DNA of 59,031 nucleotides, filler included. It is 4 parts of 4 records of this genome, joined end to end, with 100 filler letters (N's around TTAATTAATTAA, not from the genome) between each part and the next. Parts side by side here need not be neighbours in the genome. Positions count along the whole stretch, not along the records: positions 7,354 to 37,453 come from SRR20825019_1125; 3 more parts are not named here. One strand, 5' to 3'. The translations under genes were made by a program, and so were the position numbers. Shown one piece after another: positions 21,963 through 37,365 of this stretch. The notes below the pieces were generated by a model, which worked only from the letters and a program-made list of their open reading frames with translations, searched no databases and had not been told where the DNA came from. Numbering within the stretch: the first letter of the stretch is position 1; each line of letters starts with the position of its first letter.

Positions 21963-22074
21963 GATATTGGCGATCTTCTTCGCATGCGAGATCCGGCGGC
22001 GATTGCCGCCGGGAGCGAAAACCTGTGTCGCGGACGCCGCGACATGAAACAAACCACAATAAAAGAGGACGAAC

Positions 22075-23121
22075 ATGAAAAAGACATTGATTGCAGCCCT
22101 GACGCTCGCGCTGCTGGGCAGCGCCCAGGCCTATGCGCAGGAAAAAATCATCCGCTTTGCCCATGACAGCAATGGCGATATCTACGACAACCCCAACCAT
22201 GCCTGCGCCTCGGTATTCGCGGCCATCGTCAACACCGGCAGCAATGGCGCGCTGAAGGTGGAAATCTATCCGGGCGGCCAGCTTGGCACCATCGGCGAGG
22301 CCGTCCAGATGGTCCGCGACGGCGTCATCGAGGTCACCAATGCCTCGACCGGCGCGCTCGCCCCCTATTATCCAAACATCGACGTTCTGAACCTGCCCTT
22401 CGCTTTTGCCAGCAACGGCGCCGCCGATACCGTGTTCAATGGTCCGTTCGGTTACGCGCTGAAGCAGGATATCGAGGACAAGCTCGGCGATGTCGTTGTG
22501 CTCGGCTACCCGGATACCGGGGGCCTGTTCGTCATCTCGAATTCCGAGAAGCCGATCTCGTCGCTTGACGACATGAAGGGCATCCGCCTGCGCACCATGA
22601 CGCTGCCGTCGCATCAGGCGATCATGAACGCACTCGGCATGGAAGCCTATCCGCTGGCATTCTCGGAAGTCTATTCCGGTCTGCAGACCGGCGTCATCGA
22701 CGGCCAGATGAACCCGATCCCGATCCTGGTCTCGGCCAAGCTCGACGAGGTGCAGCAGTATCTGACGCTGACCAACCACCTCTATTCGCCGTTCACGATG
22801 CTGTTCAACAAGGCCTTCTATGACGACCTGACGGAAGACCAGAAGGACCTGATCCACACCGCCGCGCAGTCCTGCGAGAACGCCGCGCGCGGCATCTCGC
22901 GGATCATCGAGGCCTCCGACCGCGGTCTCGCCGGGCTTTCCGGCAAGATGACGATCACCGCGCTTTCGCCCGAGGATCGCGCCCAGATGCGTGAGGTCAC
23001 CGATGTCGCCTTCGACAAGTACATGGCGGAAAACCATGGCGAGGATGCACTCGCACTGGTCGACCTGCTCAAGGAAGAAAGCCAGAAGGCCAACTCGACC
23101 CGCTATTTCGGCGAGGAATGA
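22075..23121 (+). CDS. dctP: TRAP transporter solute-binding protein (DctP)
   Basis: Signal peptide; YPGGQLG; MKGIRLR; FSEVYSGLQTGVIDGQMNP. Confidence 0.95.
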   Translation: MKKTLIAALTLALLGSAQAYAQEKIIRFAHDSNGDIYDNPNHACASVFAAIVNTGSNGALKVEIYPGGQLGTIGEAVQMVRDGVIEVTNASTGALAPYYPNIDVLNLPFAFASNGAADTVFNGPFGYALKQDIEDKLGDVVVLGYPDTGGLFVISNSEKPISSLDDMKGIRLRTMTLPSHQAIMNALGMEAYPLAFSEVYSGLQTGVIDGQMNPIPILVSAKLDEVQQYLTLTNHLYSPFTMLFNKAFYDDLTEDQKDLIHTAAQSCENAARGISRIIEASDRGLAGLSGKMTITALSPEDRAQMREVTDVAFDKYMAENHGEDALALVDLLKEESQKANSTRYFGEE

Positions 23122-23210
23122 GCCGATCCGAATGCCGGGGGAGGGTGTCTTCCCCCGGAACCGCCGGGCGGAGCCGCCCGACAACCCATCACTCAGTACA
23201 GGAATTCAAA

Positions 23211-23954
23211 ATGCGTTCGAGCCTTGGTGAAACCCGATCGAGCATCAAGCGCTCCCACGCGCTCATCTGCGTGGACAGCCACGAGATCATCAGCCTGCCG
23301 CACTGGCCGGGCACCGAAATCATCTCCTATGTGACGCCGGGCCTCGGCGCGGGGTTTTCCCTGTTCCGGATCACCGCGACGCGCGAAACCCGGATACCGC
23401 CGCCGCCGCATGACGGCATCCGCTTCATCCTGCTGCGTGCCGGCCGGGTGGACGTCCGCGACGGGGCGGAGGCCCATACCCTTGAGACGGACGAATATGC
23501 CTATCTGCCGCAGGCGAGCGGCTTCACGCTGGACATGGCGGACGGTACGGAACTCCTCTGCCTCGAACATGCCTACAAACCGTTGGCCGGTGCAAAGCCG
23601 CCCGGGCCGGTCTTCGGCTCGATAGCGTCTGTCGCTGCCGTTCCGCTGAAGGGAAACGAACAGCTTCATGTCCAGAAACTCCTGCCGGAGGAACCGGGGT
23701 TCGACATGGAGGTCAACGTGATGACCTTCGCGCCCGGCGGCTCGCTGCCCTATGTGGAAACCCATTTCATGGAGCATGGCCTGGTGATGCTCGACGGCGG
23801 CGGCATCTATCGCCTCGATGACCAGTGGTATCCGGTCGCGCGCGGCGACGCCATCTGGATGGCGCCGTTCTGCCCGCAATGGTTCGGGGCGCTCGGGCGC
23901 GGCGATGCGCGCTACCTGATCTACAAGAACTGGAATCGCGACCCGCTGGTGTGA
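23211..23954 (+). CDS. allE: (S)-ureidoglycine aminohydrolase (bicupin, AllE/YlbA-like)
   Basis: FDMEVNVMTFAPGGSLPYVETHFMEHGL..GIYRLDDQWYPV..GDAIWMAPFCPQWF..YLIYKNWNRD. Confidence 0.9.
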   Translation: MRSSLGETRSSIKRSHALICVDSHEIISLPHWPGTEIISYVTPGLGAGFSLFRITATRETRIPPPPHDGIRFILLRAGRVDVRDGAEAHTLETDEYAYLPQASGFTLDMADGTELLCLEHAYKPLAGAKPPGPVFGSIASVAAVPLKGNEQLHVQKLLPEEPGFDMEVNVMTFAPGGSLPYVETHFMEHGLVMLDGGGIYRLDDQWYPVARGDAIWMAPFCPQWFGALGRGDARYLIYKNWNRDPLV

Positions 23955-24055
23955 TCCTCCTCGCACCAGGACGGGAAATGCGGCCGGGTCGGCACTCGGT
24001 TCAAATCGGAGAAAGTATAACCCTTGTGCCCGGCAGCTGGCCCGTCCAGGCGTGG

Positions 24056-25240
24056 TCAGGGCCTCGTCATGCCAAGATGCGCGGCGCAGATGTCGGCTAT
24101 GGAGGTGAAGGGCATCAGGCCAAGGGAACATGGCGCAATGCCCGGACCGGCTACCAGCACCGGGACCCGTTCACGGGTGTGATCCGTGCCGGACCAGGTC
24201 GGGTCATTGCCGTGGTCGGCGGTTATGGCAAGCAGATCGCCTTCACTGAGCCGCTGGAGCAGCGACGGCATGCGGGCATCGAAGGCTTCGAGCGCGCGGG
24301 CATAGCCGGCCACATCCCGGCGGTGACCCCACAGACTGTCGAATTCGACGAAGTTGGCGAACACCAGATCGCCGGGGCCTGCCTTGCCCGTCCACTCCAG
24401 CAGCCCGTCGAACAGCGCCATGTCATCCGCGCCCTTGGTGACATCGTCGATGCCGCGATGCGCGAAGATATCGCCGATCTTGCCGACCGCGTGCACTTGC
24501 CCGCCGTTTTCGCGGACCCGGTCGCACAGCGTTCCATGCGGCGGAGCGATCGCGAAATCACGACGGTTCGCGGTGCGGTGGAAACTCTGCGGGCTTTCGC
24601 CCGCAAAAGGACGGGCGATCACCCGCCCGACATTCATGGGATGGAATATGTTCGCAGCGATGCGGCAGATCTCCAGCAGCCTTTCGAGACCAAATGCCTG
24701 CTCATGCGCCGCGATCTGCACGACGCTGTCGGCGGAGGTGTAGACGATCGGCCATCCTGTTTCGATGTGCTGAAGGCCGAACCGCCTGATGACTTCCGTG
24801 CCCGAGGCGTGGCCGTTGGCAAGCGTGCCGGCGATGCCGGACCGTTCGGCCAGCGCCGTCATCGCCTCCGATGGAAAGGCAGGGACGGTCCGGGGGAAAT
24901 AGTGCCAGTCCCGCTCCACGACCTTGCCTGCCAGTTCCCAATGACCGGATTGTGTGTCCTTGCCCTTCGAGCTTTCCTCGGCCGCGCCGAAACGGGCCGG
25001 TGCGTCGGCGGCAAGGCCCGGCGCGATCGCGCCTGAAGCGAGCGTGATTGCGCGCCCGAGACCGAGCGCATCGAGATGGGGAACGCGCAAGGGGCCGGCG
25101 CGCCCGCTCTCCGCCCTGCCGGCGGCGCAAGCCTCGGCGATGTGCAGGAGCGTGTTGGCGCCCTCGTCGCCGTAAAGCGCGGCGTCAGCAGCCCCACCGC
25201 AGCCGACGGAATCAAGAACGCAGAGAAACACCCTCGACAT
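24056..25240 (-). CDS. deoB: Phosphopentomutase
   Basis: LDSVGCG, GKDTQSGHWE, YTSADSV, RVIARPF, NRRD, DSLWGHRRD, TADHGNDP, TDHTRERVP. Confidence 0.95.
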   Translation of the reverse strand: MSRVFLCVLDSVGCGGAADAALYGDEGANTLLHIAEACAAGRAESGRAGPLRVPHLDALGLGRAITLASGAIAPGLAADAPARFGAAEESSKGKDTQSGHWELAGKVVERDWHYFPRTVPAFPSEAMTALAERSGIAGTLANGHASGTEVIRRFGLQHIETGWPIVYTSADSVVQIAAHEQAFGLERLLEICRIAANIFHPMNVGRVIARPFAGESPQSFHRTANRRDFAIAPPHGTLCDRVRENGGQVHAVGKIGDIFAHRGIDDVTKGADDMALFDGLLEWTGKAGPGDLVFANFVEFDSLWGHRRDVAGYARALEAFDARMPSLLQRLSEGDLLAITADHGNDPTWSGTDHTRERVPVLVAGPGIAPCSLGLMPFTSIADICAAHLGMTRP

Positions 25241-25983
25241 CAGGAAAGCTGGAAGCGTTCGAGTGCGTGGCGCCGGATGAGGTTAACGACCTCATAGAAT
25301 CCCCAGCCGATCAGCGAAAGCAGCAATACGACGCCGATCACCACCGCCGTGTCGCCGTTTTCCTGGCCGGAAGCCAGAAGATAGCCGAGCCCCTTGTTGG
25401 CGCCCATGAGTTCGCCGATGACGGCGGCCGTCATCGCCAGCGTGGTCGCAACCGCCATGCCGGCGAGAACCGACGGCAGCGAGGAGGGCAGTTCGATGCG
25501 CCAGAACATCTGCCACGGATTGAGCCGCAGCACCTTGGCGAGATCGCGATAGCTGCCTTCGCCATAGCGCAGCCCGCTCACCATGCCGGACATGACCGGG
25601 AAGAACGTGACGATCGCGACCAGCACGATTTTCGGCATGGGGCCAATGCCCAGCCACAAAAGCAGCAGCGGGGCAATGGCGATCTTGGGGGCCGTCTGCA
25701 GCAGCAGAATGGCCGGCGTGGCAAGTCGCTCGACGCGGGGCAGGCGGTCGAAGACGATTCCGGCGAGAACTCCCGCAGTGGTCCCGGCAGCAAAGCCGGC
25801 GATGATTTCCTGAAGCGTTACCCAGGTGTTTTCCATCAGGCCGGCATTCGTGAACAGAAATGCCATCCGCTCGGCAACCGCCACGGGCCCCGGCAGAAGA
25901 AACGCCGGGACGCGAAACACGTTGACGATCAGGACCCAGATAACCAGGGTTGCGATCAGGCCCGCTATGCCACGCACGAACAT
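25240..25983 (-). CDS. ABC transporter permease (SsuC/TauC-like)
   Basis: FLLPGP, QTAPKIAIAPL, TFFPV, IELPSSLP, GELMGANKGLG. Confidence 0.92.
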   Translation of the reverse strand: MFVRGIAGLIATLVIWVLIVNVFRVPAFLLPGPVAVAERMAFLFTNAGLMENTWVTLQEIIAGFAAGTTAGVLAGIVFDRLPRVERLATPAILLLQTAPKIAIAPLLLLWLGIGPMPKIVLVAIVTFFPVMSGMVSGLRYGEGSYRDLAKVLRLNPWQMFWRIELPSSLPSVLAGMAVATTLAMTAAVIGELMGANKGLGYLLASGQENGDTAVVIGVVLLLSLIGWGFYEVVNLIRRHALERFQLS

Positions 25984-25985
25984 GG

Positions 25986-26990
25986 TTACTTCCCGACCAT
26001 GGACGGATCGATGACGAAGTCCTCGGCCTTCGGCGCCTCTTCGATCACGCCATACTCGGCCAGCATATCGGCGTTCTTCTGCCAGCCGGCGAGATCGGCG
26101 GCCCCGAGGCCTTTTTCCTGCGTCAGCGGGCTCTGCCAGACGGAAGGAATGAAGGTCTGTTCGAAGGCCGTCGTCAGCGTATCCTTCTGATCCTTCGGCC
26201 ATGTCGGGGCATATTTGTCGAGCGCGATGTCCAGGGCCTCGCTGACATTGCCGTCGATCACCCACTGGTAGGATTCCGTCACGGAATCGTTGAAACGCTT
26301 TACCAGGTCGGCATTGTCGGAAAGGGTCTTCTTGCTGGTGACGACGACATTGCCGAACGAGGGCAGGAAGTCGTTTGAGAGGATCATCGTGACCTCGTCC
26401 CCGGCGGCTTCGAGACTGTATTTGCGCAATTCGGAGAAGACGATCGCATCGACCTGATCCGCCTGAAGCGCCTGGACGATCGCGCCGGTGGCGATCACCT
26501 CGACCTTGACGTCATCGAGGGTCAGGCCGGCGCTTTTCAGGCCGGCCTGAAGCTGAAGATAGTTCGGGCTTGCAAGACTGGTGACCGCGACGGTCTTGCC
26601 CTTCAGATCGGCATAGGTTTCGATGCCCGCGGACTTCTTGGCAAGCAACGCGCCGATGCCGCGCTGATAGGTGGTGTGCACGACCTCCACCGGCAGGCCG
26701 TTTGCGGCCGCGGCAACGACGGCATCGCCATTCGGGAAACCGAAATCGACATTGCCGACAGCGATGTTGGTGAGAATATCGGAGGCGCCGGCATAGATGA
26801 ACTCGACATCGATCCCGTTCTTGTCGAAGAAGCCCTTTTCGACGCCGGCATAGAGCGGCGCATAGAAAGGCACGGCGGCGCCGTCGATCTGGAACACCAC
26901 TTCGTCATTGGCAAGGGCGGTCGACGCGAGGAGTGGGAGGGCGAGCGCGCCAATGAGGATGGCGCCGGATTTCTTGAGGATGCTGGTCAT
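25986..26990 (-). CDS. ABC transporter substrate-binding protein (NMT1/THI5-like)
   Basis: Signal peptide; PFYAPLYAGVEKGFFDKNGIDVE; DLKGKTVAV. Confidence 0.88.
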   Translation of the reverse strand: MTSILKKSGAILIGALALPLLASTALANDEVVFQIDGAAVPFYAPLYAGVEKGFFDKNGIDVEFIYAGASDILTNIAVGNVDFGFPNGDAVVAAAANGLPVEVVHTTYQRGIGALLAKKSAGIETYADLKGKTVAVTSLASPNYLQLQAGLKSAGLTLDDVKVEVIATGAIVQALQADQVDAIVFSELRKYSLEAAGDEVTMILSNDFLPSFGNVVVTSKKTLSDNADLVKRFNDSVTESYQWVIDGNVSEALDIALDKYAPTWPKDQKDTLTTAFEQTFIPSVWQSPLTQEKGLGAADLAGWQKNADMLAEYGVIEEAPKAEDFVIDPSMVGK

Positions 26991-27778
26991 GAGAAGTCTG
27001 TTCCCTTCTGGTTGCTGAGTGAGAATGCCAGCCCTGCAATTCTGAGCAGATTGCGCTGGGTCGGCTCGTAATCATCAAGCCACTGGTCCGTGGCCCGATT
27101 TCCATGCACGCCAAGCAAGGCGGCGCATTTCAGGCCGACGGCAGCGCCGACCGTGAAGGTGGTTTCGCATTCCATCTCGACGCCGATCGCGCCGAGGCCT
27201 TGCAATTTTTCGATGAACCCGCCGGAGCGATGGTGGTGATCGAGGCGGAAACGCCGGTCCTGGCCGAAATAATAGCTGTCTGTGGAACCCACGATCCCGG
27301 TCCTGCACGCAAGCCCGCAGCGGCCGGCGGCTTCGCCGAGCCTTCCCACCAGCGACGCATCGGCCTCTGCCGTGCCGCCCGCCATCCGGTAGCGGGAGGC
27401 CGTGCCGGTGTCGCCGACCGCGCGCTCGACCGCGATGAAGCTGCCGACAGGATAGGCCTCGTCGAGCGCGGACATACCGCCGATGCGGATCACCTGGCGT
27501 GCGCCGAGCATGGCCAGTTCCACCAGCGCGATTTCGGTGGATGGGCCGCCGATGCCGGTCGAGCAGATGGTCACGGGCTCGCCCTGATAGCGGCCGGTGA
27601 TCACCGCATATTCGCGTTTTCGGCCGAAATCGCGGACATCGCTCAGCATGTCGGCCAGCAGGCGAACGCGGTCCGGATCTCCGGGCGTCAGAACATTCTC
27701 GGCGATGTCGCCGGGTCCGCATGGCAGATGCGGCGGACGGCCGTCCTTCCAGGGAAAGGAAGCGCTGGTTTCAGCCAT
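26987..27778 (-). CDS. Uridine-phosphorylase-like nucleoside phosphorylase with an atypical base pocket
   Basis: PHL, PGDPDRV, KREY, STGIGGPSTEIALVEL, DSYYFGQDR, EMEC; but RIGGMS replaces RIGTTG and VHGNR replaces VIVNR. Confidence 0.88.
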   Translation of the reverse strand: MAETSASFPWKDGRPPHLPCGPGDIAENVLTPGDPDRVRLLADMLSDVRDFGRKREYAVITGRYQGEPVTICSTGIGGPSTEIALVELAMLGARQVIRIGGMSALDEAYPVGSFIAVERAVGDTGTASRYRMAGGTAEADASLVGRLGEAAGRCGLACRTGIVGSTDSYYFGQDRRFRLDHHHRSGGFIEKLQGLGAIGVEMECETTFTVGAAVGLKCAALLGVHGNRATDQWLDDYEPTQRNLLRIAGLAFSLSNQKGTDFS

Positions 27779-28538
27779 TGCCTTCACCCTTCCAGGAAAG
27801 CAGGCGATGCTCGAGCGCCGTCACGATCACATGCAGCAGAAGCCCGACGGCAACCGTGAGGCCGACCATCGCAAACAGCAGGCCGGTCTTGTAGGTCGCG
27901 GTCGCAAACGTCATCAGATAGCCGAGCCCCTGCTGGCCCGACATCCATTCGGCCAGTACCGCGCCGACCAGAGCCTGGACGACCCCGATCTTCAGGCCGA
28001 CGAAGATGTCGGGGAGCGCCGCCGGCAGCTCGATCTGGCGAAAGGAGGCAAAGCGCCCAAGCCGCAGAAGGCGCGACAGATCCCTCATCTTCGGATCAAG
28101 GCCGCGAAAACCCGTCGTCGCGCCGACAAAGATCGGAAAAAACACCAGCGATACGATCAGGATGATCTTCGATGTGATGCCGGAGCCGAACCAGACGATG
28201 AAAAGCGGGGCAAGCGCGATCTTCGGCGCTGTCTGCAGGATTACCAGCGGCCCGTCGAACCAGGTCGCCAGCCGGGAAAACCGGGTCATGACATAGCCAA
28301 GCGCAAGGCCCGCGACGCTGCCGGCGACAAGGCCGATGACGATATTTTTCAAGGTGAAGCCAAGGTTGGTCCAAAGCGTGCCGTCGACTGCGATCTTCAC
28401 CAGGGCATTCCATGTGCTTGCCGGCGAAGGCATCAGATAGGGCGGCAGTTCGACGATCGCGGTCGCATACCACCACGCGCCGAGCAGCACGAGAACGGCA
28501 AGCGCGTAATCGAATGTTGCGGAGAGACGGCGTTTCAT
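27771..28538 (-). CDS. ABC transporter permease (SsuC/TauC-like)
   Basis: YLMPSP, QTAPKIALAPL, VFFPI, IELPAALP, AEWMSGQQGLG. Confidence 0.92.
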   Translation of the reverse strand: MKRRLSATFDYALAVLVLLGAWWYATAIVELPPYLMPSPASTWNALVKIAVDGTLWTNLGFTLKNIVIGLVAGSVAGLALGYVMTRFSRLATWFDGPLVILQTAPKIALAPLFIVWFGSGITSKIILIVSLVFFPIFVGATTGFRGLDPKMRDLSRLLRLGRFASFRQIELPAALPDIFVGLKIGVVQALVGAVLAEWMSGQQGLGYLMTFATATYKTGLLFAMVGLTVAVGLLLHVIVTALEHRLLSWKGEGNG

Positions 28539-29299
28539 CAGTGAACCCCGCCGCCCGCGCCCGCGGTTTTGAGATCGTGGCGGAGCTTGGCAACGAGGGC
28601 ATGATAGGCGGGATCCAGCTTGGTCGCCTCGCCCCGGGGCCGCTCGAGCGCGACATCATGGATGCATTTCAATTTGCCCGGGCGCGCCGTCATGACCAGC
28701 ACCCGGTCGGCGAGATAGGCGGCTTCATCGACGCTGTGGGTGACCAGCAGGATCGTCTTGCCGGTTTCCTGCCAGATGCGCAGCAATTCATCGTTGAGGT
28801 TGTCGCGCGTCATCAGATCGACGGCCGAAAACGGCTCGTCCATCAGCAGGATTTCGGGGTCGTCCGACAACGCACGGGCGATCGCCGCGCGCTGGCGCAT
28901 GCCGCCGGAAAGCTGGCGTGGCAGCGCTTTCTCGAATCCTGACAGGCCGACCATGGCGATCAGGTCCCTGGCCCTGGCGTTGGCGGTGGCGCGGTTCGCG
29001 CCAGCGGTATCGAGCGGGAATCGGACATTGTCGAGAATGTTCTTCCACGGCAGCAGCACCGGCTCCTGAAAGACGAAGCCCACCGGGCGCCGGCGATGCG
29101 CCGCGTTGAGTTCTATGGTGCCGCCGCTCGGATCATCGAGGCCGGAGATCAGACGCAGCAGCGTCGACTTGCCGCAACCGGACGGCCCGACGATCGAGAT
29201 GAACTCGCCGTCCTTGATATCGACGCTCAGCGGCTCAAGGGCAGTCACCGTGCCGTGGCTTGCCTCGAAGGTTTTATGGACGCCCCTGATCTCAATCAT
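28538..29299 (-). CDS. ABC transporter ATP-binding protein (TauB/SsuB-like)
   Basis: GPSGCGKST, VFQEPVLLPW, LSGGMRQR, MDEPFSA, VTHS. Confidence 0.95.
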   Translation of the reverse strand: MIEIRGVHKTFEASHGTVTALEPLSVDIKDGEFISIVGPSGCGKSTLLRLISGLDDPSGGTIELNAAHRRRPVGFVFQEPVLLPWKNILDNVRFPLDTAGANRATANARARDLIAMVGLSGFEKALPRQLSGGMRQRAAIARALSDDPEILLMDEPFSAVDLMTRDNLNDELLRIWQETGKTILLVTHSVDEAAYLADRVLVMTARPGKLKCIHDVALERPRGEATKLDPAYHALVAKLRHDLKTAGAGGGVH

Positions 29300-29368
29300 T
29301 GTGCATATGTCTTTCGATGTCGGGAAGGCTCATGGAACGCCTCTCTTCATGTTATATGTGGTAGAATT

Positions 29369-29384
29369 GTCTCATTATTGAGAC
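29369..29384. promoter_or_regulatory. Putative XRE-regulator operator 1 (GTCTCA-TTAT-TGAGAC) upstream of the ABC-phosphorylase-deoB operon
   Basis: Perfect 6-4-6 palindrome; same core as the sites at 33105 and 36135. Confidence 0.7.
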
Positions 29385-29447
29385 TTCACGGGTCATCTTG
29401 ACCATACCCTGCCGATGCAGGGCAGTCGTTTCGAACGGCGTCGAAAA

Positions 29448-31097
29448 CTATCCGTTACGCCGAACGGCAATCGCGCGGGCGATGTCGGAGAGGGCGTCAA
29501 GCTTGGCCTCGCACGACCCTTCCGCGTAAACCTTTTCGAGCTTTTCGGCATAGGTCTGCAATTCACGCAGGCAGTCCTCGCCGGCGTGATGGAGCATCGG
29601 CGTTTCATAATTGTCATCGGCAAAATCGGCAGCGACGATGCCGAGCAGGAGATAGCCCGCCGCCTTTTCGGGCTGTTTCTCCGCCTGCCGGAAGGCCACT
29701 TCCGCCGCCTTGCCGAAGGCTTTCACGGCCACCTTGTTTTCAATCACAAATGCGGGAATATCCTTGAACACTGATACTTCCTTCGTCTGGTTTTCATTCT
29801 CGAAGCGCGAATCTCCGCCAAGGTAATGGCACAGCAATTCGACCGCGCATAGCAGGTCGCCGATCTCCATCGCTTCGTCCGGATTATGCGATCCATGATC
29901 ATTTCGCACAAAAATCATCCCGGCGGAAATGCCTTTGCCGGCAAATACCGCGGCATCGTGTCCGCCGCCCGAGACCATGCGGATCGGCGCGAGCCCGGCA
30001 TCGTTCCCGGCCCGCTCCAGATCGGCGATGATTTTCCGCGACAAAGACGCGGGCGCGGTCTTCAGTGGCTCGCCCAGAACGAAGCGGACCTTGCGTGCCG
30101 CCTCGATCCGGCTGACCTCCCGTTCGAGCAACGTGTGGAAGCGCTCCAGTGTGGCAACATCATCGCTGCGCACATCAAGGCTGAAATGCACGGCGTCCGG
30201 TATTCGCGACATCGCATGGGTCGCCTCATTGGTGGAAACCACGCCGCTGGTAACCACCAGATCCCGGCCATTGTCGACGGCTTCCTGCCAGGCCTGATCC
30301 AGATGCGCCATCAGATCGGCCATCGCCAGCACCGGGTCATGGCGGTAGGCGCGCGGGACAGCGCCGGAATGGCCGCTTTCACCGAAACAGGTGATGGATT
30401 TGTAGCGGAAATTGCCCCGGATACCGGTCACCACGGCGACGGGCAGGTCGCGTTCGACCAGAACCGGCCCCTGTTCGATGTGGACCTCGATATACTGCGC
30501 GACCGCTTCCGTCCGGATCAGCGGCTCGCCGTTGCGCACCTTGCCGATGTCGATGCCGATCGCCTCCATATGCGCGGCGAGCGAATGGCCGTCATCCCTG
30601 TGGCGCGCTTCCAGTTCTTTGTCCGACAGCGTTCCGAGCAGCGCCTTGGAGCCGATGTAGCAGGGGCCGAACCACGCGCTTTCCTCGCCGCGCATCGCAA
30701 TCACCCTGACCGGCATGTGGAACGCGTTCGCCAGACCTTGGCGCACCGCCACCAGACAAAGCATGCCGGCAACGACGCCCGCCAGCCCGTCGAAATTGCC
30801 GCCCTGGTCGATGCTGTCGACATGCGAGCCGACCAGACAATAGCGTTCGGCCGCCGCGTGCTCGGGCAGGCTCATGACCAGATTGCATCCTGCGTCATAA
30901 CCGGTCGAAAGACCCTCGGCCTCGGCAACGCCCGCAAGATATTCCAGCACTTCGGTTTCCCTGGCGGAATAGGCCGGGCGGCTGACGCCCGCTTCGGCAG
31001 CGCTGATGCGCGCCACGTCGTCGAACATACGCGCCGCCAGCGATGCGAGATCGGCCGATACGATGCCGGGAGAAGGTTGAGGTCGGTGGTGCGTCAT
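29448..31097 (-). CDS. M20-family Zn amidohydrolase (N-carbamoyl-amino-acid/allantoate amidohydrolase family) with an extra ~107-aa C-terminal region
   Basis: GSHVDS..GGNFDGLAGV, RGEES, EVHIEQGPVL, GHSGAVP, SGGGHDA, SHNPDE; ATGA overlap with the pyrD stop. Confidence 0.9.
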   Translation of the reverse strand: MTHHRPQPSPGIVSADLASLAARMFDDVARISAAEAGVSRPAYSARETEVLEYLAGVAEAEGLSTGYDAGCNLVMSLPEHAAAERYCLVGSHVDSIDQGGNFDGLAGVVAGMLCLVAVRQGLANAFHMPVRVIAMRGEESAWFGPCYIGSKALLGTLSDKELEARHRDDGHSLAAHMEAIGIDIGKVRNGEPLIRTEAVAQYIEVHIEQGPVLVERDLPVAVVTGIRGNFRYKSITCFGESGHSGAVPRAYRHDPVLAMADLMAHLDQAWQEAVDNGRDLVVTSGVVSTNEATHAMSRIPDAVHFSLDVRSDDVATLERFHTLLEREVSRIEAARKVRFVLGEPLKTAPASLSRKIIADLERAGNDAGLAPIRMVSGGGHDAAVFAGKGISAGMIFVRNDHGSHNPDEAMEIGDLLCAVELLCHYLGGDSRFENENQTKEVSVFKDIPAFVIENKVAVKAFGKAAEVAFRQAEKQPEKAAGYLLLGIVAADFADDNYETPMLHHAGEDCLRELQTYAEKLEKVYAEGSCEAKLDALSDIARAIAVRRNG

Positions 31098-32035
31098 ATC
31101 ATCGCCTCCGCAAGTTCGATATTCCCTTCCGCAGGCAGCGCGGAGCCAATGATTTCCGCGATCGATGCGACGCCCTGGGCCTTGAGCGCAACCGCAAGCT
31201 CATCAACGAGCCGCGGCATGATGGTGGGATCGAGGAAATTTGCCGTGCCGACCTGAACGGCGCTGGCGCCGACCATCAGATATTCGAGAACGTCGTCGAC
31301 CGAGGAAATGCCGCCGCAGCCGATCACCGGGATGGAGACCGCGCGCGCGCACTGGTAGGCGACCCGCAGGGCCACGGGCTTGAGGGCGGGGCCCGACAGG
31401 CCGCCCAGAACATTGCCCAGCCTGAAGCGCCGGGTTTGGATGTCGACCGCAGTCGCGAGCAGCGTGTTGGTGGCAACAAGCGCATCGGCGCCGGCATCTT
31501 CGGCGGCATGAGCGATTGCGGCCACATCGCTGGCGTTGGGCGAAAGCTTGGCCCAGAGCGGAAGATCAGTCGCTGCGCGCATTTGTGCGATCACCCGCGC
31601 CGTCGCTGTCTCGCTGAGCGCGAAGGCGCGGCCATCATCCTCGATATTCGGGCACGAGATATTGACCTCGATGGCGCTCACTCCGGGGAGCGTCAGAGCA
31701 CGCGCGAATGCTGCAAAGAATTCGGCAGAGGGGGCCGAGACGCTGACCACGAGGGGAACGGCGAACGCGCCGAAGGCAGGGACAATGTTGCGGATAAGGT
31801 AATCGCTGCCCTGGCTCGGAATGCCGATCGAGTTCAGCATGCCATCATGCAATTCGCAAACACGCGGGACAGGATTGCCGGCGCGCCGTTGCGGCGTCAC
31901 TGTTTTCAGCACCATCGCCCCCAGCCGGTTGAAGTCGAAGATCTCGGCCATTTCAATTCCGAACGTGCCGGAGGCCGGCATGATCGGGTTTTGCAGGGCA
32001 AGATCGCCGATACGGACGGAAAGGTCGGTCATCAC
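31094..32035 (-). CDS. pyrD: Dihydroorotate dehydrogenase class 1B catalytic subunit (possibly acting as orotate reductase)
   Basis: NPIMPASGTFG, GNPVPRV, MLNSIG, EVNISCPN (catalytic Cys), KLSPN, NTL, GGLSGPALKPVAL, VQVGTANF. Confidence 0.92.
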   Translation of the reverse strand: MMTDLSVRIGDLALQNPIMPASGTFGIEMAEIFDFNRLGAMVLKTVTPQRRAGNPVPRVCELHDGMLNSIGIPSQGSDYLIRNIVPAFGAFAVPLVVSVSAPSAEFFAAFARALTLPGVSAIEVNISCPNIEDDGRAFALSETATARVIAQMRAATDLPLWAKLSPNASDVAAIAHAAEDAGADALVATNTLLATAVDIQTRRFRLGNVLGGLSGPALKPVALRVAYQCARAVSIPVIGCGGISSVDDVLEYLMVGASAVQVGTANFLDPTIMPRLVDELAVALKAQGVASIAEIIGSALPAEGNIELAEAMI

Positions 32036-32868
32036 ACGATCTCCTCCAGCCCGAAGACCGGCCCTTCGTGACAGACCCTGAGGTTGACGCCAACGCCATC
32101 GCGGCGGAAGGGGCGGACGCAGGCCTGACAGGCGCCGACGCCGCAGGCCATGTGCTGTTCAAGCGCCGCCTCGCCGGAAATCCCATGGCTGCGACCGAGC
32201 CTTTGCATGACCCCAATAAGGCGCGCCGATCCGCAGGTATAGAAGCGGTCGACACCCTCGGTTTCAATCAGGTTCTCTATCGTTGCCTTGATGCTTTCGA
32301 CGGCGGAGTTTCCTTCGCTGTCGCTCACCGCAATGACATTGACGCCCCAGGAGCGAAACCGATCGAGCGACATCAGAAGTTCCGGCGCTCTGGCGCTGCA
32401 GATGGCGGTGACCTTCGCAGACGACCGGGAGAGCGCCTCGGCAAGCGGGGCGAGCGTTGCCAGGCCGACGCCGCGCGCAAGCAGCAGGGGATGCCGGGAA
32501 TGATGCGCCATGTCGAACCCGCGGCCCAGCGGGCCGACAAGATCGAGATCGTCGCCGGGCCGGAGGCCTGCAAGCGCGCGGGTTCCAAGACCGGTAACCT
32601 TGTAGAGGAATGAAAGCGCGCCACGCGCACGATCGAAACCGTAAATGCTCATCGGCCTGCGGAAGAAAGGCGACGGGTGGCCATCGACCGGGCAGCGCAG
32701 GTGGAAGAACTGGCCCGGCGCGCATGCGAGCATTGCCGGCTCCGCTTTGGCCACGAGCAGACGATACTCCGCATTCACCGGCCGGTTCTCGACCACGGCG
32801 GCAAGACCCTGCCGTATCGGGTACCGGGGCGAGGGGATGTTGATGACAGCTTTGGCGTGGGTGTTCAT
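32032..32868 (-). CDS. pyrK: Dihydroorotate dehydrogenase electron-transfer subunit (FAD, 2Fe-2S)
   Basis: PGQF, RRPMSI, GLGTRAL, GPLGRGF, GVGLA, TCGS, EQHMACGVGACQAC..VCHEGPVF. Confidence 0.92.
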   Translation of the reverse strand: MNTHAKAVINIPSPRYPIRQGLAAVVENRPVNAEYRLLVAKAEPAMLACAPGQFFHLRCPVDGHPSPFFRRPMSIYGFDRARGALSFLYKVTGLGTRALAGLRPGDDLDLVGPLGRGFDMAHHSRHPLLLARGVGLATLAPLAEALSRSSAKVTAICSARAPELLMSLDRFRSWGVNVIAVSDSEGNSAVESIKATIENLIETEGVDRFYTCGSARLIGVMQRLGRSHGISGEAALEQHMACGVGACQACVRPFRRDGVGVNLRVCHEGPVFGLEEIV

Positions 32869-33078
32869 GGAAATCGAAAATAGCTCCTGCGACCGGTCAA
32901 GACCGGCGCTGTCGACTGAATGGAGAATTGGAATCCCGTGGATGCGCAGATTCAATCAGCTTCGGGAAAAATCAGACAAGGCCGAAACGCGTCGGCAGCG
33001 CTCTGCTTTACGCTCGGGAAACGTTCTGAAACGGACTTTGCGAGCCATCCGAATACCTCCGGCAGGAGTTAAAAACCG

Positions 33079-33136
33079 AGGCTATTATTGCCTCGTCCCA
33101 CTGTCAAGATAATTCTCATTTTTGCGAATTATCTTG
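33079..33136 (-). promoter_or_regulatory. Sigma70 promoter of the pyrK operon (TTGACA-17-TAGCCT) abutting putative operator 2 (CAAGATAATTCTCA-TTTT-TGCGAATTATCTTG)
   Basis: TGTCAA at 33102-33107 is TTGACA on the minus strand; 14-4-14 inverted repeat with one mismatch at 33105-33136. Confidence 0.75.
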
Positions 33137-33167
33137 GTTCGGTGCGACGAGACGCTTCGAAGACCGA

Positions 33168-34448
33168 TCACCGTCCCAGAAGATTCGGCAGGAAAAGCGA
33201 GACTTGCGGGAGGTAGGTGACAATCCCAAGCGCTATGAGATTGGCGAGGATGAAAGGCCATACGCCGGCTATGATCGCCGTGACCGGTTTCTGCAGGGTG
33301 GAGGAGGCGACGAAAATGTCGAGCCCGAATGGCGGCGTGATCATCCCGATGCAGATATTGAGCGTCATGATCATGCCGAGATGAACCGGATCGATGCCAA
33401 GCGCCATCGCCGCCGGAAACAGTGCCGGCACCAGAATGATCAGCGCCGAATTGGGATCGATGAACATGCCGGCAATCAGGAAGATCGCGTTGACGATCAG
33501 CAGAAAGACGAACGGCCCCGCCTGAACCAGATCGAGGAACCCGATGATCGCCTGCGGCATGCGGGCGAGGGTGATGAAATGGGCGAGAATGCTTCCGAAG
33601 GCGAGCAGCATGAAGATCACCGATGTCGAGATCGCCGCGCGTTCGGTCACCTCAAACAGTTTCCTGAGCGAGAGGCTTCTGTAGACCGCGAATTCGATGA
33701 TAATCGCATAGACCACGCTGACGGCGGCGGCTTCGGTCGGCGTGAAGAAGCCCGAATAGATCCCCCCGAGAATGATCACGGGCATGCCGAGCGCACCGAG
33801 CGCCTCCCGACTGGCGGCGATGCGTTCGGCAAAGCCTGCTGGCTCGCCGCGCTTGATCCCGCACCGCCTCGCCTCGATCGCGACATAGACGGCAAAGACG
33901 AGAGCCAGCAGCAGACCGATGGAAAGCCCGCCGATAAACAGTTCGGAAATCGAGGTTCCCGTGATCCAGCCATAGACGATGATCGTGATCGACGGGGGGA
34001 TGAGCAATGCCGTCTCGGCGCTCGAAACGATCAGCCCGAGCGAAAACTTCTCGCTGAAACCGGCCTTGCGCATTTCCGGATAGACCATGCCGCCCATTGC
34101 CGCCACGGTGGCCGGCGCCGACCCCGAGATCGACCCGAAGGTGAGCGCGCCGCCGATGGCCGAATACCCGATCCCTCCGGCCATATGGCCGCAGAGCGAG
34201 CGCACGAAAACCATCAGCCGTCGCGCGATCTGTCCTTCCCCCATCAGCTCGGCGGCGAAGATGAAGAACGGGATCGCCAGCAGGGTTGAATGGTCGACGC
34301 CCCCGACAATGCGCTGCATTATCGATGTCATCGGGAGCGACGCGAAATAGGCCTGCTTGATCAGCAGCGCTGGGACTCCCAGCACCAGAAAAATTTCGAA
34401 GCCTGCGACCAGCAGCAGTCCGGCAAGTATGATGATGACAACCAACAT
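33168..34448 (-). CDS. dctM: TRAP transporter large permease (DctM)
   Basis: LLAIPFFIFAAELM, GSISGSAPAT, LIPPS, TPTEAA, ITPPFG. Confidence 0.95.
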   Translation of the reverse strand: MLVVIIILAGLLLVAGFEIFLVLGVPALLIKQAYFASLPMTSIMQRIVGGVDHSTLLAIPFFIFAAELMGEGQIARRLMVFVRSLCGHMAGGIGYSAIGGALTFGSISGSAPATVAAMGGMVYPEMRKAGFSEKFSLGLIVSSAETALLIPPSITIIVYGWITGTSISELFIGGLSIGLLLALVFAVYVAIEARRCGIKRGEPAGFAERIAASREALGALGMPVIILGGIYSGFFTPTEAAAVSVVYAIIIEFAVYRSLSLRKLFEVTERAAISTSVIFMLLAFGSILAHFITLARMPQAIIGFLDLVQAGPFVFLLIVNAIFLIAGMFIDPNSALIILVPALFPAAMALGIDPVHLGMIMTLNICIGMITPPFGLDIFVASSTLQKPVTAIIAGVWPFILANLIALGIVTYLPQVSLFLPNLLGR

Positions 34449-34459
34449 GGGTCCTGATC

Positions 34460-34948
34460 CTAGCTTTGAGCCGAAAAGCGGTCATACCTGCCGAGTGCGC
34501 TTAGCAGGAACCTGAGCGCCAGCAGGCCGAACCCGATCGTCGGAGCGGCGTAAAGCCATGCGGTCGATATGTTCAGCGTGGGATTTTTCTGGTGAAGACG
34601 CAGCACGAAAGCGCACATCTGCCAACCGAGATAGGCAAGCTCCAGCGAAACCAGAAGACCGGTGATGTCGATGATCAGCCTGATCGGAAGACGGGTTTTC
34701 TCCGCTATCCTGTCGCGCCATGAGTTGATGCAGACCTGCCGTCCCTTTTCCAGCGCAAGACCGGCCGTCAGGAACACGAGGTAAAGGTTGAGAATGCCGA
34801 CCAGCGGATCGATCCAGACGAAATCGGACGCCCGTCTCGGCGCGACTTCGCGGACGACGACATTGGTGAAGTAGAGGGCGACCATCGTCAAAAAGACAGC
34901 GACGATAACCAGACGCTCCGCGTTGCGCAAAAACTTGAGGATTCCCAT
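34460..34948 (-). CDS. dctQ: TRAP transporter small permease (DctQ)
   Basis: 4 TM, located between dctP and dctM; NVVVRE; PTLNISTAWLYAAP. Confidence 0.88.
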   Translation of the reverse strand: MGILKFLRNAERLVIVAVFLTMVALYFTNVVVREVAPRRASDFVWIDPLVGILNLYLVFLTAGLALEKGRQVCINSWRDRIAEKTRLPIRLIIDITGLLVSLELAYLGWQMCAFVLRLHQKNPTLNISTAWLYAAPTIGFGLLALRFLLSALGRYDRFSAQS

Positions 34949-34987
34949 CGGAACGCTCCGGTTGGAAGGCAGAACCAAAAAGACCAA

Positions 34988-35015
34988 GCCGCGAAAACCC
35001 GAAGGCTTTCGCGGC
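34988..35015 (-). terminator. Stem-loop after dctP (attenuating terminator)
   Basis: GCCGCGAAA / TTTCGCGGC stem followed on the minus strand by TTGGTCTTTTT. Confidence 0.6.
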
Positions 35016-35037
35016 CGTGAGGCTTTTCGTGGCGGTA

Positions 35038-36063
35038 TTACTGGCCGGAAACGCGGCTGTATTCGCTCTCGTAAACGTCGATAAGCTGCTGTCCGGCAGC
35101 GCCCGCACGATCCAGATAGGCGCTCTTGGTGGCGGGATACATGATCTCCCGGAACCTGGCCTTCATCGCGTCGTCGGCAATCTGCACGTTCATCCCCTGT
35201 TCCTTGACGGCGGCAAGCGCATCATCGATCGCGGCTTGCTTGTGCGTCATCAGTTCCGGAATAACCTCGCGGAACGTATCCGCGATCACCGTCTGGTATT
35301 CGGCCGGCAGGCTGTCCCAGAATGCCGGGTTGAACAGGATGACGTCCTCCATCGCGCCGTGGTTGGAGACCAGAAGGTTCTTCTGGACCTCGTAATACTT
35401 CATGTTGCGGATGGTATCGAGCGGGTTTTCCTCGCCGTCGACGACGCCGGTCTGAAGGGCGGTGTAGAGCTCGGAGAAAGCAATCGGCGTCGCTGCCGCA
35501 TCGATTGCCTTGAACTGCTCGACAAGAATGTTTGAATCCATCACCCGGAACTTTGAACCTGCAAAATCCTCGACCGTGGCGATCGGGCTGTTGGAGGTGA
35601 AGTTCTTCTTGCCGTTTGGCCACAGGCCGAGGCAGGTTACGCCGTAATCACTGAAGGTGTCACAGAGCGCCTCGCCGAATTGGCCCTCGATGATCTCCTG
35701 ATGCTGCTCGTCGCTCTCCGGCAGGAGATAGGGAATATCGAGGATCGAAACCGCCGGATTGAACCCGCCCAGAAAAGCCGCCGGCGAAATCGTCGCCTCG
35801 ATCGTCCCGAGCTGAACGCCCTCTGTCATCTCCCGCTGCTGGCCGAGTTGGCCCTGCGGGAAGATCTGGAATTCGACATCGCCATTGGTTCGTTCGCTGA
35901 CCAGGGAGGCGACCTTTTCCAGCATGACATTGCGGGTCTGCTGCGGCGCTTCGAGGTGCCCGATCTTGGCGACATACTGGGCAGCTTCGGCTGAAAACGG
36001 CACCAAAGCCGCTATCAGCGCGCCGGCAAGCACTTGACGGCGATTGAAGGAAAGGACGAGCAT
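35038..36063 (-). CDS. dctP: TRAP transporter solute-binding protein (DctP), possible Tat-type signal
   Basis: NRRQVLAG signal; FPQGQLG; SKFRVM (conserved Arg); FSELYTALQTGVVDGEENP. Confidence 0.95.
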   Translation of the reverse strand: MLVLSFNRRQVLAGALIAALVPFSAEAAQYVAKIGHLEAPQQTRNVMLEKVASLVSERTNGDVEFQIFPQGQLGQQREMTEGVQLGTIEATISPAAFLGGFNPAVSILDIPYLLPESDEQHQEIIEGQFGEALCDTFSDYGVTCLGLWPNGKKNFTSNSPIATVEDFAGSKFRVMDSNILVEQFKAIDAAATPIAFSELYTALQTGVVDGEENPLDTIRNMKYYEVQKNLLVSNHGAMEDVILFNPAFWDSLPAEYQTVIADTFREVIPELMTHKQAAIDDALAAVKEQGMNVQIADDAMKARFREIMYPATKSAYLDRAGAAGQQLIDVYESEYSRVSGQ

Positions 36064-36100
36064 GAGGAAGTTCCCTTTTTTATCGTTGGAAGATTCCCGG

Positions 36101-36183
36101 ATGTTAGATCGGTTTTTGGATGGGGGTCAAGAATATTCTCAAAAATGCGAATTATCGCTTTTCAGTTATATTTTTTGAGAATT
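36101..36183. promoter_or_regulatory. Divergent dctP/XRE promoter region with putative operator 3 (ATTCTCA-AAAA-TGCGAAT, 36135-36152)
   Basis: Minus-strand TTGACC-18-TAACAT lies next to the palindrome, as at operator 2; extra half site TGAGAATT at 36176-36183. Confidence 0.7.
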
Positions 36184-36219
36184 CATGCTAGACCGTCTGA
36201 AATTGATGCGTGGAGAATC

Positions 36220-37113
36220 ATGACAGAACAATCCGTCTCAATTCAGGAAATCGGCAACCGCCTGAAGGCATTCCGGCTGGGCAAGGGGCTGACGCCCGAG
36301 GAGCTCGCCAAGCAGATTGGAATCTCCCGTGCTGCAATATACCGTTATGAGGCGGGCGCGACGCCAAAAGTCGACACGCTGGCATTGATCGCGGAAAAAC
36401 TGGGCGTGACGCTCACCAATATTCTCGGGATCGGCACGGAATATATCTCGACGGCTGTCGGCTTTTTCGAGCGGATGCGCCAACTTGAAGCCGATGTCGA
36501 TCAGATCAGCGTACTGTTCGGCCCGATCTCCTACCTCCTCACGACCGATGCCTACGACGCCGTGCTGCCAGAGGTTCTGGAAGAAAGCGTGCCGGCCGAT
36601 GCCCCGTTCCGCGAGAATACGCTGCGCGATATCGATACGCTGATCCAGATCCTGCTCGCGCGCAAACGCGCGTTCCGCGAGCGCAAACCGTCGATCCTCA
36701 GCCTGGTGGCGCTCGGCGAGCTCGAGCAGTTCGTCCGTTCCGGCTTTGTCGGAAGCTACCGGCCGGATGGCAGCGACCTCGCGGCGCGGCGCAAGGCGGC
36801 GCTCACCGAGGTGAACCATATCCTTGATCTCCTCGCCGATCCGCCGATCGGCGTTCAGATCGGCCTGGTGGTGGATTCGCTTCCCGGATCCTCGTTTCAG
36901 CTATTCCGAAGCGGTCAGCACAAGACGCTCTGCGTCAGCCCATATCGTCTGGGCGCCTTCCCGAATGTGCGAATCGGGGTTGCCACGGTCACCTCGGCGG
37001 CGGAGGCCATCGCGCTGCACACCGGCGTTACCGACCGCCTCTGGCGTGCCAGCCTGAAGGCCGATGATGCCATCCGGCTGATACGCTCCGAACTGATCGA
37101 CAAATACCGATAG
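36220..37113 (+). CDS. XRE-family HTH transcriptional regulator with uncharacterised C-terminal (ligand-binding?) domain
   Basis: IGNRLKAFRLGKGLTPEELAKQIGISRAAIYRYEAG; GGAG RBS; divergent from the TRAP operon. Confidence 0.9.
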   Translation: MTEQSVSIQEIGNRLKAFRLGKGLTPEELAKQIGISRAAIYRYEAGATPKVDTLALIAEKLGVTLTNILGIGTEYISTAVGFFERMRQLEADVDQISVLFGPISYLLTTDAYDAVLPEVLEESVPADAPFRENTLRDIDTLIQILLARKRAFRERKPSILSLVALGELEQFVRSGFVGSYRPDGSDLAARRKAALTEVNHILDLLADPPIGVQIGLVVDSLPGSSFQLFRSGQHKTLCVSPYRLGAFPNVRIGVATVTSAAEAIALHTGVTDRLWRASLKADDAIRLIRSELIDKYR

Positions 37114-37214
37114 CGTCGCCGCGTTCCAACTGGAGCATCGGAAGATTGTTGGCCGCCGGTCCTGGAGAAAAAACAATCCAATAGGATTTCATCCGACTGT
37201 TCTGCCCATCGCCT

Positions 37215-37365
37215 GGACGCGAGACGGTCGCCAGCGGCAACGACATAGCCGTAAAAATGTTGCGCGCCATGGCAAAGATAGCGAAGGCCCGGCTCTCCAT
37301 CTTTTGTCCTGAGAAAGCGGTCCGCCGGGCAGCGTCCCAGATAGACGCCAATAGGCACATGCGCG
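37215..37365 (-). pseudogene. Remnant of an anaerobic sulfatase-maturase-like radical SAM/SPASM C-terminus
   Basis: GRCPADRFLRTKDGEPGLRYLCHGAQHF resembles the GGCPKDRF..DGEPGLNYLC motif; no intact ORF. Confidence 0.6.

Follow-up and report, generated by a model that had tools for sequence, protein, structure and literature searches.

A cluster of thirteen genes at positions 24056-37113 of a 59,031-nucleotide stretch of DNA (the window, made of four genome records joined end to end, with the cluster in record SRR20825019_1125) is interpreted here as a regulon for the use of external orotate and, probably, orotidine. Taken as a whole, and judged from the sequences compared, this model seems to us reasonably probable. 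Its parts differ in firmness: we are rather confident that the cluster serves orotate catabolism, and the identification of the nucleoside as orotidine is favored by a little over an even chance.

In the scheme that we propose, orotate would enter the cell through a TRAP system, DctPQM, and would be reduced to dihydroorotate by a class 1B dihydroorotate dehydrogenase (DHOD), PyrK/PyrD, running in reverse as an NADH-dependent orotate reductase. A housekeeping dihydroorotase, encoded outside the window, would open the ring to give N-carbamoyl-L-aspartate. From this, an amidase of the M20 family would release L-aspartate, NH3 and CO2, as ureidosuccinase does in the Clostridium oroticum pathway. 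In parallel, an ABC system would import a uracil-type nucleoside with an extra polar group, most simply orotidine; a homologue of uridine phosphorylase (Udp) would split this nucleoside into orotate and ribose-1-phosphate, and DeoB would turn the latter into ribose-5-phosphate. An XRE-family regulator probably keeps all three transcription units repressed and would release them when its C-terminal domain binds orotate or an intermediate of the pathway. The comparisons gave independent backing to each step of the proposed route, with no step contradicted.

Sequence and family profile searches, together with the coordinates of the open reading frames (ORFs), gave the gene content and order that a first-pass annotation of the window had described, with the same family assignments: three co-oriented operons stand beside a divergent XRE regulator gene, which alone is on the plus strand, while the other twelve genes are all on the minus strand. 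Unit 1 (dctP-dctQ-dctM) runs from 36063 down to 33168, unit 2 (pyrK-pyrD-M20 amidase) from 32868 or 32955 down to 29448, and unit 3, which is compact, from 29299 down to 24056 (genes for an ABC ATPase, a permease, a PNP_UDP_1 phosphorylase, an NMT1-type binding protein, a second permease and phosphopentomutase). The claim that no pyrB, pyrC, pyrE, pyrF, carA or carB accompanies them was borne out by tblastn, which found no homologue of pyrC or pyrE, nor of E. coli pyrB, pyrI, pyrF, carA or carB, in the 59-kb window. No Rfam family matches 23900-37300 at E values up to 0.1, and megablast against a plasmid collection gave partial matches only, with coverage of 40% or less; the best three carried no usable annotation.

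The conservation of the cluster was examined in 85 related loci, 30 of them seeded with PyrD and 55 with DctP; the two sets are not fully distinct, L007 and L072, for example, being one contig. All window proteins were mapped onto these loci, and all locus ORFs were clustered. The pyrK-pyrD-M20 core is carried by 26 of the 30 PyrD-seeded loci, the TRAP system by 14 and the ABC/phosphorylase/DeoB genes by 11. Of the four that lack the full core, one is truncated and the others are distant (Nitrospirota, Terriglobia and Nanoarchaeota). Among the DctP-seeded loci, 43 of 55 carry pyrD and an M20 gene beside the TRAP genes; as for the other 12, four end within 600 nt, one has M20-pyrC-pyrE without pyrD (L059), one has pyrK-pyrD without an M20 match (L077), and six have unrelated neighbors. 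The co-occurrence of pyrK, pyrD and the M20 gene on which the first-pass annotation had built its pathway is, in other words, conserved.

Clustering revealed further conserved genes just downstream of the M20 gene. An E. coli-type dihydroorotase gene (pyrC) occupies this place in 30 of the 85 loci, in agreement with the earlier suggestion that a dihydroorotase opens the ring, and an orotate phosphoribosyltransferase gene (pyrE) occurs there in 38. The commonest operon has the form XRE / dctPQM-pyrK-pyrD-M20-(pyrC)-(pyrE)-(small protein). Once pyrC is added, the operon set holds every step of the reductive orotate pathway of C. oroticum.

The ligand of the TRAP system is suggested by a protein of known structure. 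Vetting et al. reportedly described in 2015 an orotate-binding TRAP protein, Desal_2161. In the window, the three components of a TRAP transporter are encoded by adjacent, co-oriented genes whose products all pass the respective family profiles: dctP (35038-36063, minus strand; PF03480, 1.9e-80), dctQ for the small membrane subunit (34460-34987, minus strand; PF04290, 9.5e-21) and dctM for the large one (33168-34448, minus strand; PF06808, 3.5e-102). DctP aligns with Desal_2161 (PDB 4NN3) across the whole mature protein with an E value of 2.5e-127, over 317 residues without gaps, 192 of the 317 columns being identical (about 60%, by a hand count of the alignment); the next best structure scores 1.3e-46. 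Entry 4NN3 is described as a Maridesulfovibrio salexigens protein with orotic acid bound (PMC11668362), and orotic acid also figures in a TRAP review as one of the ligands from the same screen. Import of orotate by DctPQM, already proposed in the first-pass annotation, is supported by this likeness, and DctP is predicted to be orotate-specific. Desulfovibrio-group relatives carry a cluster of the form XRE / dctPQM-M20-pyrC-pyrE (L059 and L061).

A strong 13-bp hairpin lies between dctP and dctQ (34987-35016, minus strand). Hairpins are common downstream of binding-protein genes, and this one may raise the level of dctP mRNA relative to that of the membrane subunits. A second TRAP system is found on the plus strand at 20679-23954, with DctM at 20679-21962, DctP at 22075-23121 and then an (S)-ureidoglycine aminohydrolase at 23118-23954 (TIGR03214, 252.6 bits). 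It has the look of a unit for ureide/purine catabolism and runs convergently to deoB; we considered it as a member of the cluster and rejected it, as it is absent from every relative locus.

The catalytic subunit of the proposed reductase, PyrD (31094-32035, minus strand), is a class 1B DHOD: it scores 342.6 bits with NF005574 (cut-off 269), matches PDB 1EP1 at 2.8e-74 and has an NISCPN motif with the class-1 Cys. Its pyrK-like partner (FAD/NAD plus 2Fe-2S electron-transfer subunit; 32032-32868, minus strand) has an uncertain start, the ORF being open to 32955; PF10418 passes (3.4e-12), and the translation shows the four Cys of the C-terminal motif. By these matches, the protein is probably a divergent PyrK in which the Fe-S domain is retained. 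The class-1 catalytic Cys motif is common to the window enzyme and Lactococcus lactis PyrDB/PyrK (1EP1), and an Fe-S PyrK partner probably is as well; the window enzyme differs in the divergence of its PyrK-like subunit and in its proposed reductive direction and accessory role beside a class 2 DHOD. As for the claim that pyrK, pyrD and the M20 gene are translationally coupled, the 4-nt overlaps are there at both the pyrK/pyrD and the pyrD/M20 junctions, and they make coupling itself plausible.

The existence of a class 2 enzyme was examined in the genomes of five relatives (L001, L002, L029, L036 and L020). In all five, another part of the genome encodes a class 2 PyrD that exceeds the TIGR01036 cut-off, in addition to the in-cluster class 1B gene. 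Hence, the class 1B gene in these genomes is a second DHOD copy and not the one for biosynthesis, in line with the first-pass annotation. Two Desulfovibrio-type genomes (L059 and L061) show another arrangement: the class 2 enzyme is absent, class 1B is the only type present and, by their gene content, they use it for housekeeping. The cluster of L059 lacks pyrK and pyrD; in that of L061, pyrK is missing and a pyrD-like gene follows the operon at a distance of about 1 kb. Although the sample is small, the pattern fits an NAD-linked, reversible enzyme that is required solely in cells with a quinone-linked housekeeping enzyme. In Jiella pelagia, the class 2 pyrD match is split into two adjacent pieces (G003:C1:1809380-1810415, profile positions 73-349 and 1-71), which may reflect a frameshift or an assembly error.

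The third gene of unit 2 (29448-31097, minus strand) encodes a 549-residue amidase of the M20 hydantoinase/carbamoylase family (TIGR01879, 253.4 bits against a cut-off of 204); no equivalog model was passed. Its nearest structure is the L-N-carbamoylase of Geobacillus stearothermophilus (3N5F, 1.1e-42), followed by allantoate amidohydrolase (2.3e-38) and, further away, the beta-alanine synthases (1.3e-19), an order that agrees with the carbamoylase step assigned to it in the first-pass annotation. The window enzyme has its family in common with 3N5F, the M20 beta-ureidopropionases and the allantoate amidohydrolases, and it differs from enzymes of the 3N5F type in its tie to pyrD and in a fused domain described below. 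Because the M20 gene is so constantly coupled to pyrD, N-carbamoyl-L-aspartate would be its natural substrate, and we propose that the enzyme is an N-carbamoyl-L-aspartate amidohydrolase. To our knowledge, ureidosuccinase (EC 3.5.1.7) has no reference sequence.

Residues 1-429 make up the enzyme, while residues 430-549 (29448-29810, minus strand) form a fused four-helix domain of 120 residues. The fusion is found in the window and in Martelella; in most relatives the domain is a separate gene, and a free-standing homologue of about 105 residues was detected by clustering at the operon end in 36 related loci (e.g., L032:16630-16965). In the structural model of the M20 protein (pLDDT 88.7), the extension appears as a confident four-helix bundle. 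Neither the small protein nor the extension matches a Pfam family, Foldseek gave nothing below an E value of 0.79, and only clusters of "hypothetical protein" were retrieved from the Atlas. The fusion suggests that the domain works with the amidase.

The first-pass annotation had placed the same palindrome before each operon, which holds for a 16-nt core, found at all three, and fails for the long 26-nt form (GATAATTC-N10-GAATTATC). The latter occurs only before pyrK (33108-33133, no mismatches) and before dctP/XRE (36131-36156, two mismatches), and was not found before the ABC operon even when five mismatches were allowed. The element conserved in related loci is shorter, TCTCA-N4-TGAGA, and the core palindrome before the three units of the window reads TCTCA-N4-TG[A/C]GA. 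Operator A (TTCTCAAAAATGCGAA, 36136-36151) lies between the XRE gene and dctP, a position kept in relatives, and immediately precedes a sigma-70-like promoter (36130-36101, minus strand); operator B (TTCTCATTTTTGCGAA, 33113-33128) lies upstream of pyrK and abuts a TTGACA hexamer; operator C (GTCTCATTATTGAGAC, 29369-29384) lies upstream of the ABC/phosphorylase operon. Operators A and B have the form TTCTCA-N4-TGCGAA.

At two mismatches or fewer, the 16-nt core has exactly three matches in the window, one per promoter region. This count is not significant by itself, as at least three matches were obtained in 23 of 100 shuffles, but the placement of the sites is, and so is their conservation in relatives. 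The exact core occurs 62 times in the 1,602,107 bases of the 85 related loci, compared with a shuffle mean of 0.66, and 60 of these 62 matches are located at most 350 nt upstream of dctP, pyrK, the ABC ATPase gene or the XRE gene. Rhizobium/Neorhizobium-type loci have an equivalent site, AAATCTCA-N4-TGAGATTT, before the ATPase gene, and the Martelella locus (L001) has the same two-site layout as the window. Since the core is conserved at all three unit types, as the phylogenetic footprint of one operator, the view that the three operons belong to one regulon is supported.

The candidate regulator (36220-37113, plus strand; 297 residues, read from an ATG) has an N-terminal HTH_3 domain (Pfam, 6e-15) and a C-terminal part of about 230 residues without a Pfam family. 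The combination of an HTH_3 domain and conserved TCTCA-N4-TGAGA inverted repeats, the predicted operators, in the target promoters is that of an XRE-type repressor, and orthologues of the regulator stand beside the cluster in 66 of the 85 loci. In the AlphaFold model (pLDDT 89.7), the C-terminal part gives weak Foldseek matches to folds of the PLD superfamily, including the archaeal regulator TrmBL2 (E about 1e-4, TM 0.3-0.4), and we treat it as an uncharacterized sensor domain. Five loci (L034, L037, L040, L044 and L049, at about 7.9-9.8 kb) harbor two convergent XRE paralogues, 48-54% identical to the regulator of the window, which sit between the ABC/phosphorylase and TRAP-core operons, one facing each. 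An arrangement with one regulator per operon suggests separate sensing of nucleoside and base in those genomes.

Two small elements were found near the promoters. One is a terminator-like hairpin with a T-run (CGAGGCAATAATAGCCTCG GTTTTT) at 33077-33095 (minus strand), between the operator/TTGACA box of pyrK and the pyrK start; it has no Rfam match and could be a leader attenuator. The other, at 29292-29333 (minus strand), is a 13-codon ORF (MSLPDIERHMHND) with a good Shine-Dalgarno sequence, which overlaps the ATG of the ABC ATPase gene, whose own Shine-Dalgarno is poor; it may be a translational coupling device or a leader peptide.

The nucleoside branch would be encoded by unit 3, all on the minus strand. 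In order of transcription, it contains the genes for the ABC ATPase (28538-29299; PF00005, 2e-33), permease 1 (27771-28538; PF00528, 7.4e-22), the Udp homologue (26987-27787; PF01048, 1.9e-28; E. coli Udp, 7.3e-31), the NMT1/THI5-type periplasmic binding protein (25986-26990; PF09084, 3.5e-37), permease 2 (25240-25983; PF00528, 3.8e-28, with its ATG located) and DeoB (24056-25240). The latter is above the equivalog cut-offs for phosphopentomutase of both NF003766 (476.6 bits against 256) and TIGR01696 (400.9 against 341.2). The nearest solved structures of the binding protein are distant (4NMY, 1.9e-14; ThiY 3IX1, 8.8e-9), and the phosphorylase fails the Udp equivalogs (TIGR01718, 148.6 against 280.3; NF008383, 125.5 against 262).

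Alignment of the phosphorylase with E. coli Udp (K-12 record) was carried out for 18 sequences and then for 63 further homologues. Nine residues of E. coli Udp, which we take to be binders of phosphate, of ribose and of the O2/N3/O4 edge of uracil (R30, R48, R91, H8, M197, E198, Q166, R168 and R223), are kept in all 18. Other positions have changed: T94G, T95M, F162Y and I220H are found in 18 of 18 sequences, G96S and V221G in 17, and Y195 is replaced by Val in 16 and by Ile in two; the His at the position of Ile220 is kept in all 63 further homologues. With the core residues kept and the pocket remodelled, the substrate would be a uridine-like nucleoside with an extra group on the ring; orotidine is the simplest choice, because an orotate pathway would receive the base. 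Compared with E. coli Udp and DeoB, the window proteins retain the fold and the phosphate, ribose and uracil-edge residues, and ribose-1-phosphate would likewise be passed to a phosphopentomutase; the differences are the remodelled pocket, the scores under the equivalog cut-offs and the place of the gene inside an ABC importer operon. Orotidine phosphorolysis seems possible in the Udp fold, as a uridine phosphorylase from Erwinia is described as cleaving orotidine at 1% of the rate of uridine (PMC3347554).

A tie between the nucleoside branch and the pyrimidine core was part of the original proposal, and it was found well beyond close relatives. All 17 close orthologues of the phosphorylase adjoin pyrK-pyrD-M20. 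In a wider profile scan, which yielded 80 loci (several of which repeat contigs already seen), a pyrD-like gene is present within the locus in 46, from several phyla. Streptomyces has the version PNP / ABC-pyrD-M20-pyrK; Paenibacillus has a dihydroorotase-like amidohydrolase, deoB, ABC, PNP, M20, pyrK, pyrD and a gene of the orotidine monophosphate (OMP)-decarboxylase family; a metagenome-assembled genome of Acidobacteriota has pyrD-M20-pyrC-PNP; and a further pyrD-linked phosphorylase locus is found in Devosia. In some alphaproteobacterial loci, the ABC/phosphorylase module has its own XRE paralogue beside the TRAP-core regulator. The OMP-decarboxylase-family protein of Paenibacillus ginsengihumi (L157:15927-16907) has 326 residues, and its gene follows pyrK-pyrD and is followed by a chemoreceptor gene.

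Several observations weigh against the proposed regulon for orotate and orotidine. PyrK is below every NCBIfam PyrK equivalog cut-off, with 113-120 bits (e.g., 120.4 against 314). The genomes in which a second pyrD was sought are those of relatives. One of these genomes (G004, locus L036) has no E. coli-type pyrC and no strong pyrE besides the copies in the cluster, and in another (G005, locus L020) the same holds for the strong pyrE; the operon has therefore absorbed housekeeping genes in some species, where part of it serves housekeeping and not a dedicated catabolic route. The core is missing from the surroundings of six full-length DctP loci, whose neighbors are unrelated genes only, so that the transporter also serves other ends, such as salvage. 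On the side of the nucleoside, the changed residues I220H and V221G are presumably at the C5 side of uracil in E. coli Udp, not at C6, and a 5-substituted uridine would fit as well as orotidine. Lastly, 34 of the 80 phosphorylase loci have no pyrD-like gene within 10 kb, and class 1B PyrD is absent genome-wide in three of five such stand-alone genomes, which implies that the nucleoside module can work without the reductive core. A stand-alone module can serve for salvage alone (orotate plus phosphoribosyl pyrophosphate [PRPP] giving OMP via PyrE, with DeoB sending ribose towards PRPP) or for another nucleoside. The neighbors of stand-alone TRAP and stand-alone ABC/PNP loci are unrelated genes and give no functional clue.

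The most probable alternative is that the orotate core is correctly read and that the ABC/phosphorylase/DeoB module handles some other uracil-type nucleoside (uridine, 5-methyl-, 5-hydroxymethyl- or 5-carboxy-uridine, or another modified RNA nucleoside), so that the whole would be a general pyrimidine-scavenging regulon. Conservation of the uracil-edge residues Q166, R168 and R223, the changes in the C5 pocket and the existence of the module on its own all speak for it, as does the fact that the ligands of the solved structures closest to the binding protein are thiamine-pyrimidine precursors and not nucleosides. We nevertheless consider it unlikely: the module is linked to pyrD, pyrK and M20 genes in four phyla, it has a common operator with the orotate units, and its regulator is paralogous to that of the TRAP core in some loci. 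Furthermore, pyrE directly precedes the ABC genes in one locus (L101), an OMP-decarboxylase-family gene belongs to the Paenibacillus cluster, and the phosphorylase is under the cut-off for true uridine phosphorylases.

A second alternative denies catabolism altogether: the cluster would serve biosynthesis and salvage only, providing an NAD-linked DHOD where the quinone-linked enzyme cannot work and importing orotate for PyrE, with the M20 enzyme unrelated or in an editing role. This reading draws on the sole pyrC and pyrE copies of G004 and G005 and on the six DctP loci without a core. It is, however, hard to reconcile with an M20 gene that overlaps pyrD by 4 nt and accompanies it as constantly as described above, or with the lack of linkage to pyrB, pyrF and carAB (by tblastn, in the window). 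A dedicated repressor-type operator together with linkage to an import system is the pattern of a catabolic regulon, and Rhizobium-type loci link the core to a nucleoside-cleaving module and not to biosynthetic genes. We therefore regard biosynthesis or salvage alone as very unlikely.

Least probable of all is a variant of the reductive uracil/thymine pathway, with PyrKD as a dihydropyrimidine dehydrogenase acting on uridine-derived uracil and the M20 enzyme as a beta-ureidopropionase: PyrD and PreA do have a common DHO_dh fold (the PreA model gives 113.5 bits on PyrD) and M20-type N-carbamoyl-beta-alanine amidohydrolases do exist (8C46, matched at 3e-26), but the match of the TRAP binding protein is to a binder of orotate, and uracil lacks a carboxylate. 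Where the clusters encode a ring-opening enzyme or a transferase, these are a dihydroorotase of the E. coli type and PyrE, respectively. PyrD is above the class 1B equivalog cut-off, a separate DHO_dh protein of PreA length is encoded in four of the five relatives' genomes, and neither a dihydropyrimidinase gene nor a beta-alanine gene was noticed in the window.

The chemistry that we assign to the cluster is old. Reductive degradation of orotate in C. oroticum is said to have been worked out by enzymology by Lieberman and Kornberg in the 1950s. The enzymes of that pathway are an NADH-dependent orotate reductase (EC 1.3.1.14), dihydroorotase and ureidosuccinase (EC 3.5.1.7), and the reductase was reportedly recognized as a class 1B DHOD by Argyrou et al. 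in 2000. The sequence proposed for the cluster, orotate to dihydroorotate to N-carbamoyl-L-aspartate to aspartate, NH3 and CO2, is identical, with a class 1B reductase in both cases. The settings differ: C. oroticum is an anaerobic Firmicute whose pathway comes from enzymology, whereas most hosts of the cluster are aerobic Alphaproteobacteria that have a class 2 DHOD besides, for biosynthesis, and the cluster adds an importer of the TRAP type, a regulator of the XRE family and a nucleoside branch to the pathway as enzymology defined it.

A full-text literature search found no genetic description of orotate catabolism, no ureidosuccinase gene and no orotidine-specific phosphorylase or transporter, which is weak evidence of absence as few subscription journals were covered; a search on the names of ureidosuccinase gave nothing relevant. 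For orotidine phosphorolysis, the papers searched contained only the Erwinia side activity and no dedicated enzyme. The passages seen of Barba et al. 2013 (PMC4016543) do not treat orotate breakdown. Already known, then, are the reductive orotate chemistry, an orotate-binding TRAP protein and the superfamily of every enzyme. What appears to be undescribed is the pathway at the gene level outside Clostridium, the ureidosuccinase gene, the orotidine branch, and the regulator with its operator. Going one step further is tentative, and we put it at slightly less than an even chance: the cluster would provide the first genes for ureidosuccinase and for a dedicated orotidine importer and phosphorylase (the latter a specificity new to the Udp/PNP fold, with an invariant His in the base pocket as its mark), along with an XRE regulator whose PLD-like sensor responds to orotate or an intermediate, in a utilization system that extends across Alphaproteobacteria, Actinobacteria, Firmicutes and Acidobacteriota and includes a new four-helix accessory component.

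Orotate is a common excreted pyrimidine intermediate, and the only route described for its breakdown comes from classical enzymology in one anaerobe. If our reading is true, this old chemistry would be tied to genes in more than 100 genomes of soil, plant-associated and marine bacteria, and an orphan enzyme activity would cease to be one. Annotations that now place these genes in pyrimidine biosynthesis or sulfonate transport, or call them allantoate amidohydrolase, would be corrected, and the operator/regulator pair might be usable as an orotate-responsive switch. The presence of a second, NAD-linked DHOD in bacteria that possess a quinone-linked one would be explained, and orotidine would join the nucleosides for which bacteria have a dedicated system of import and cleavage.

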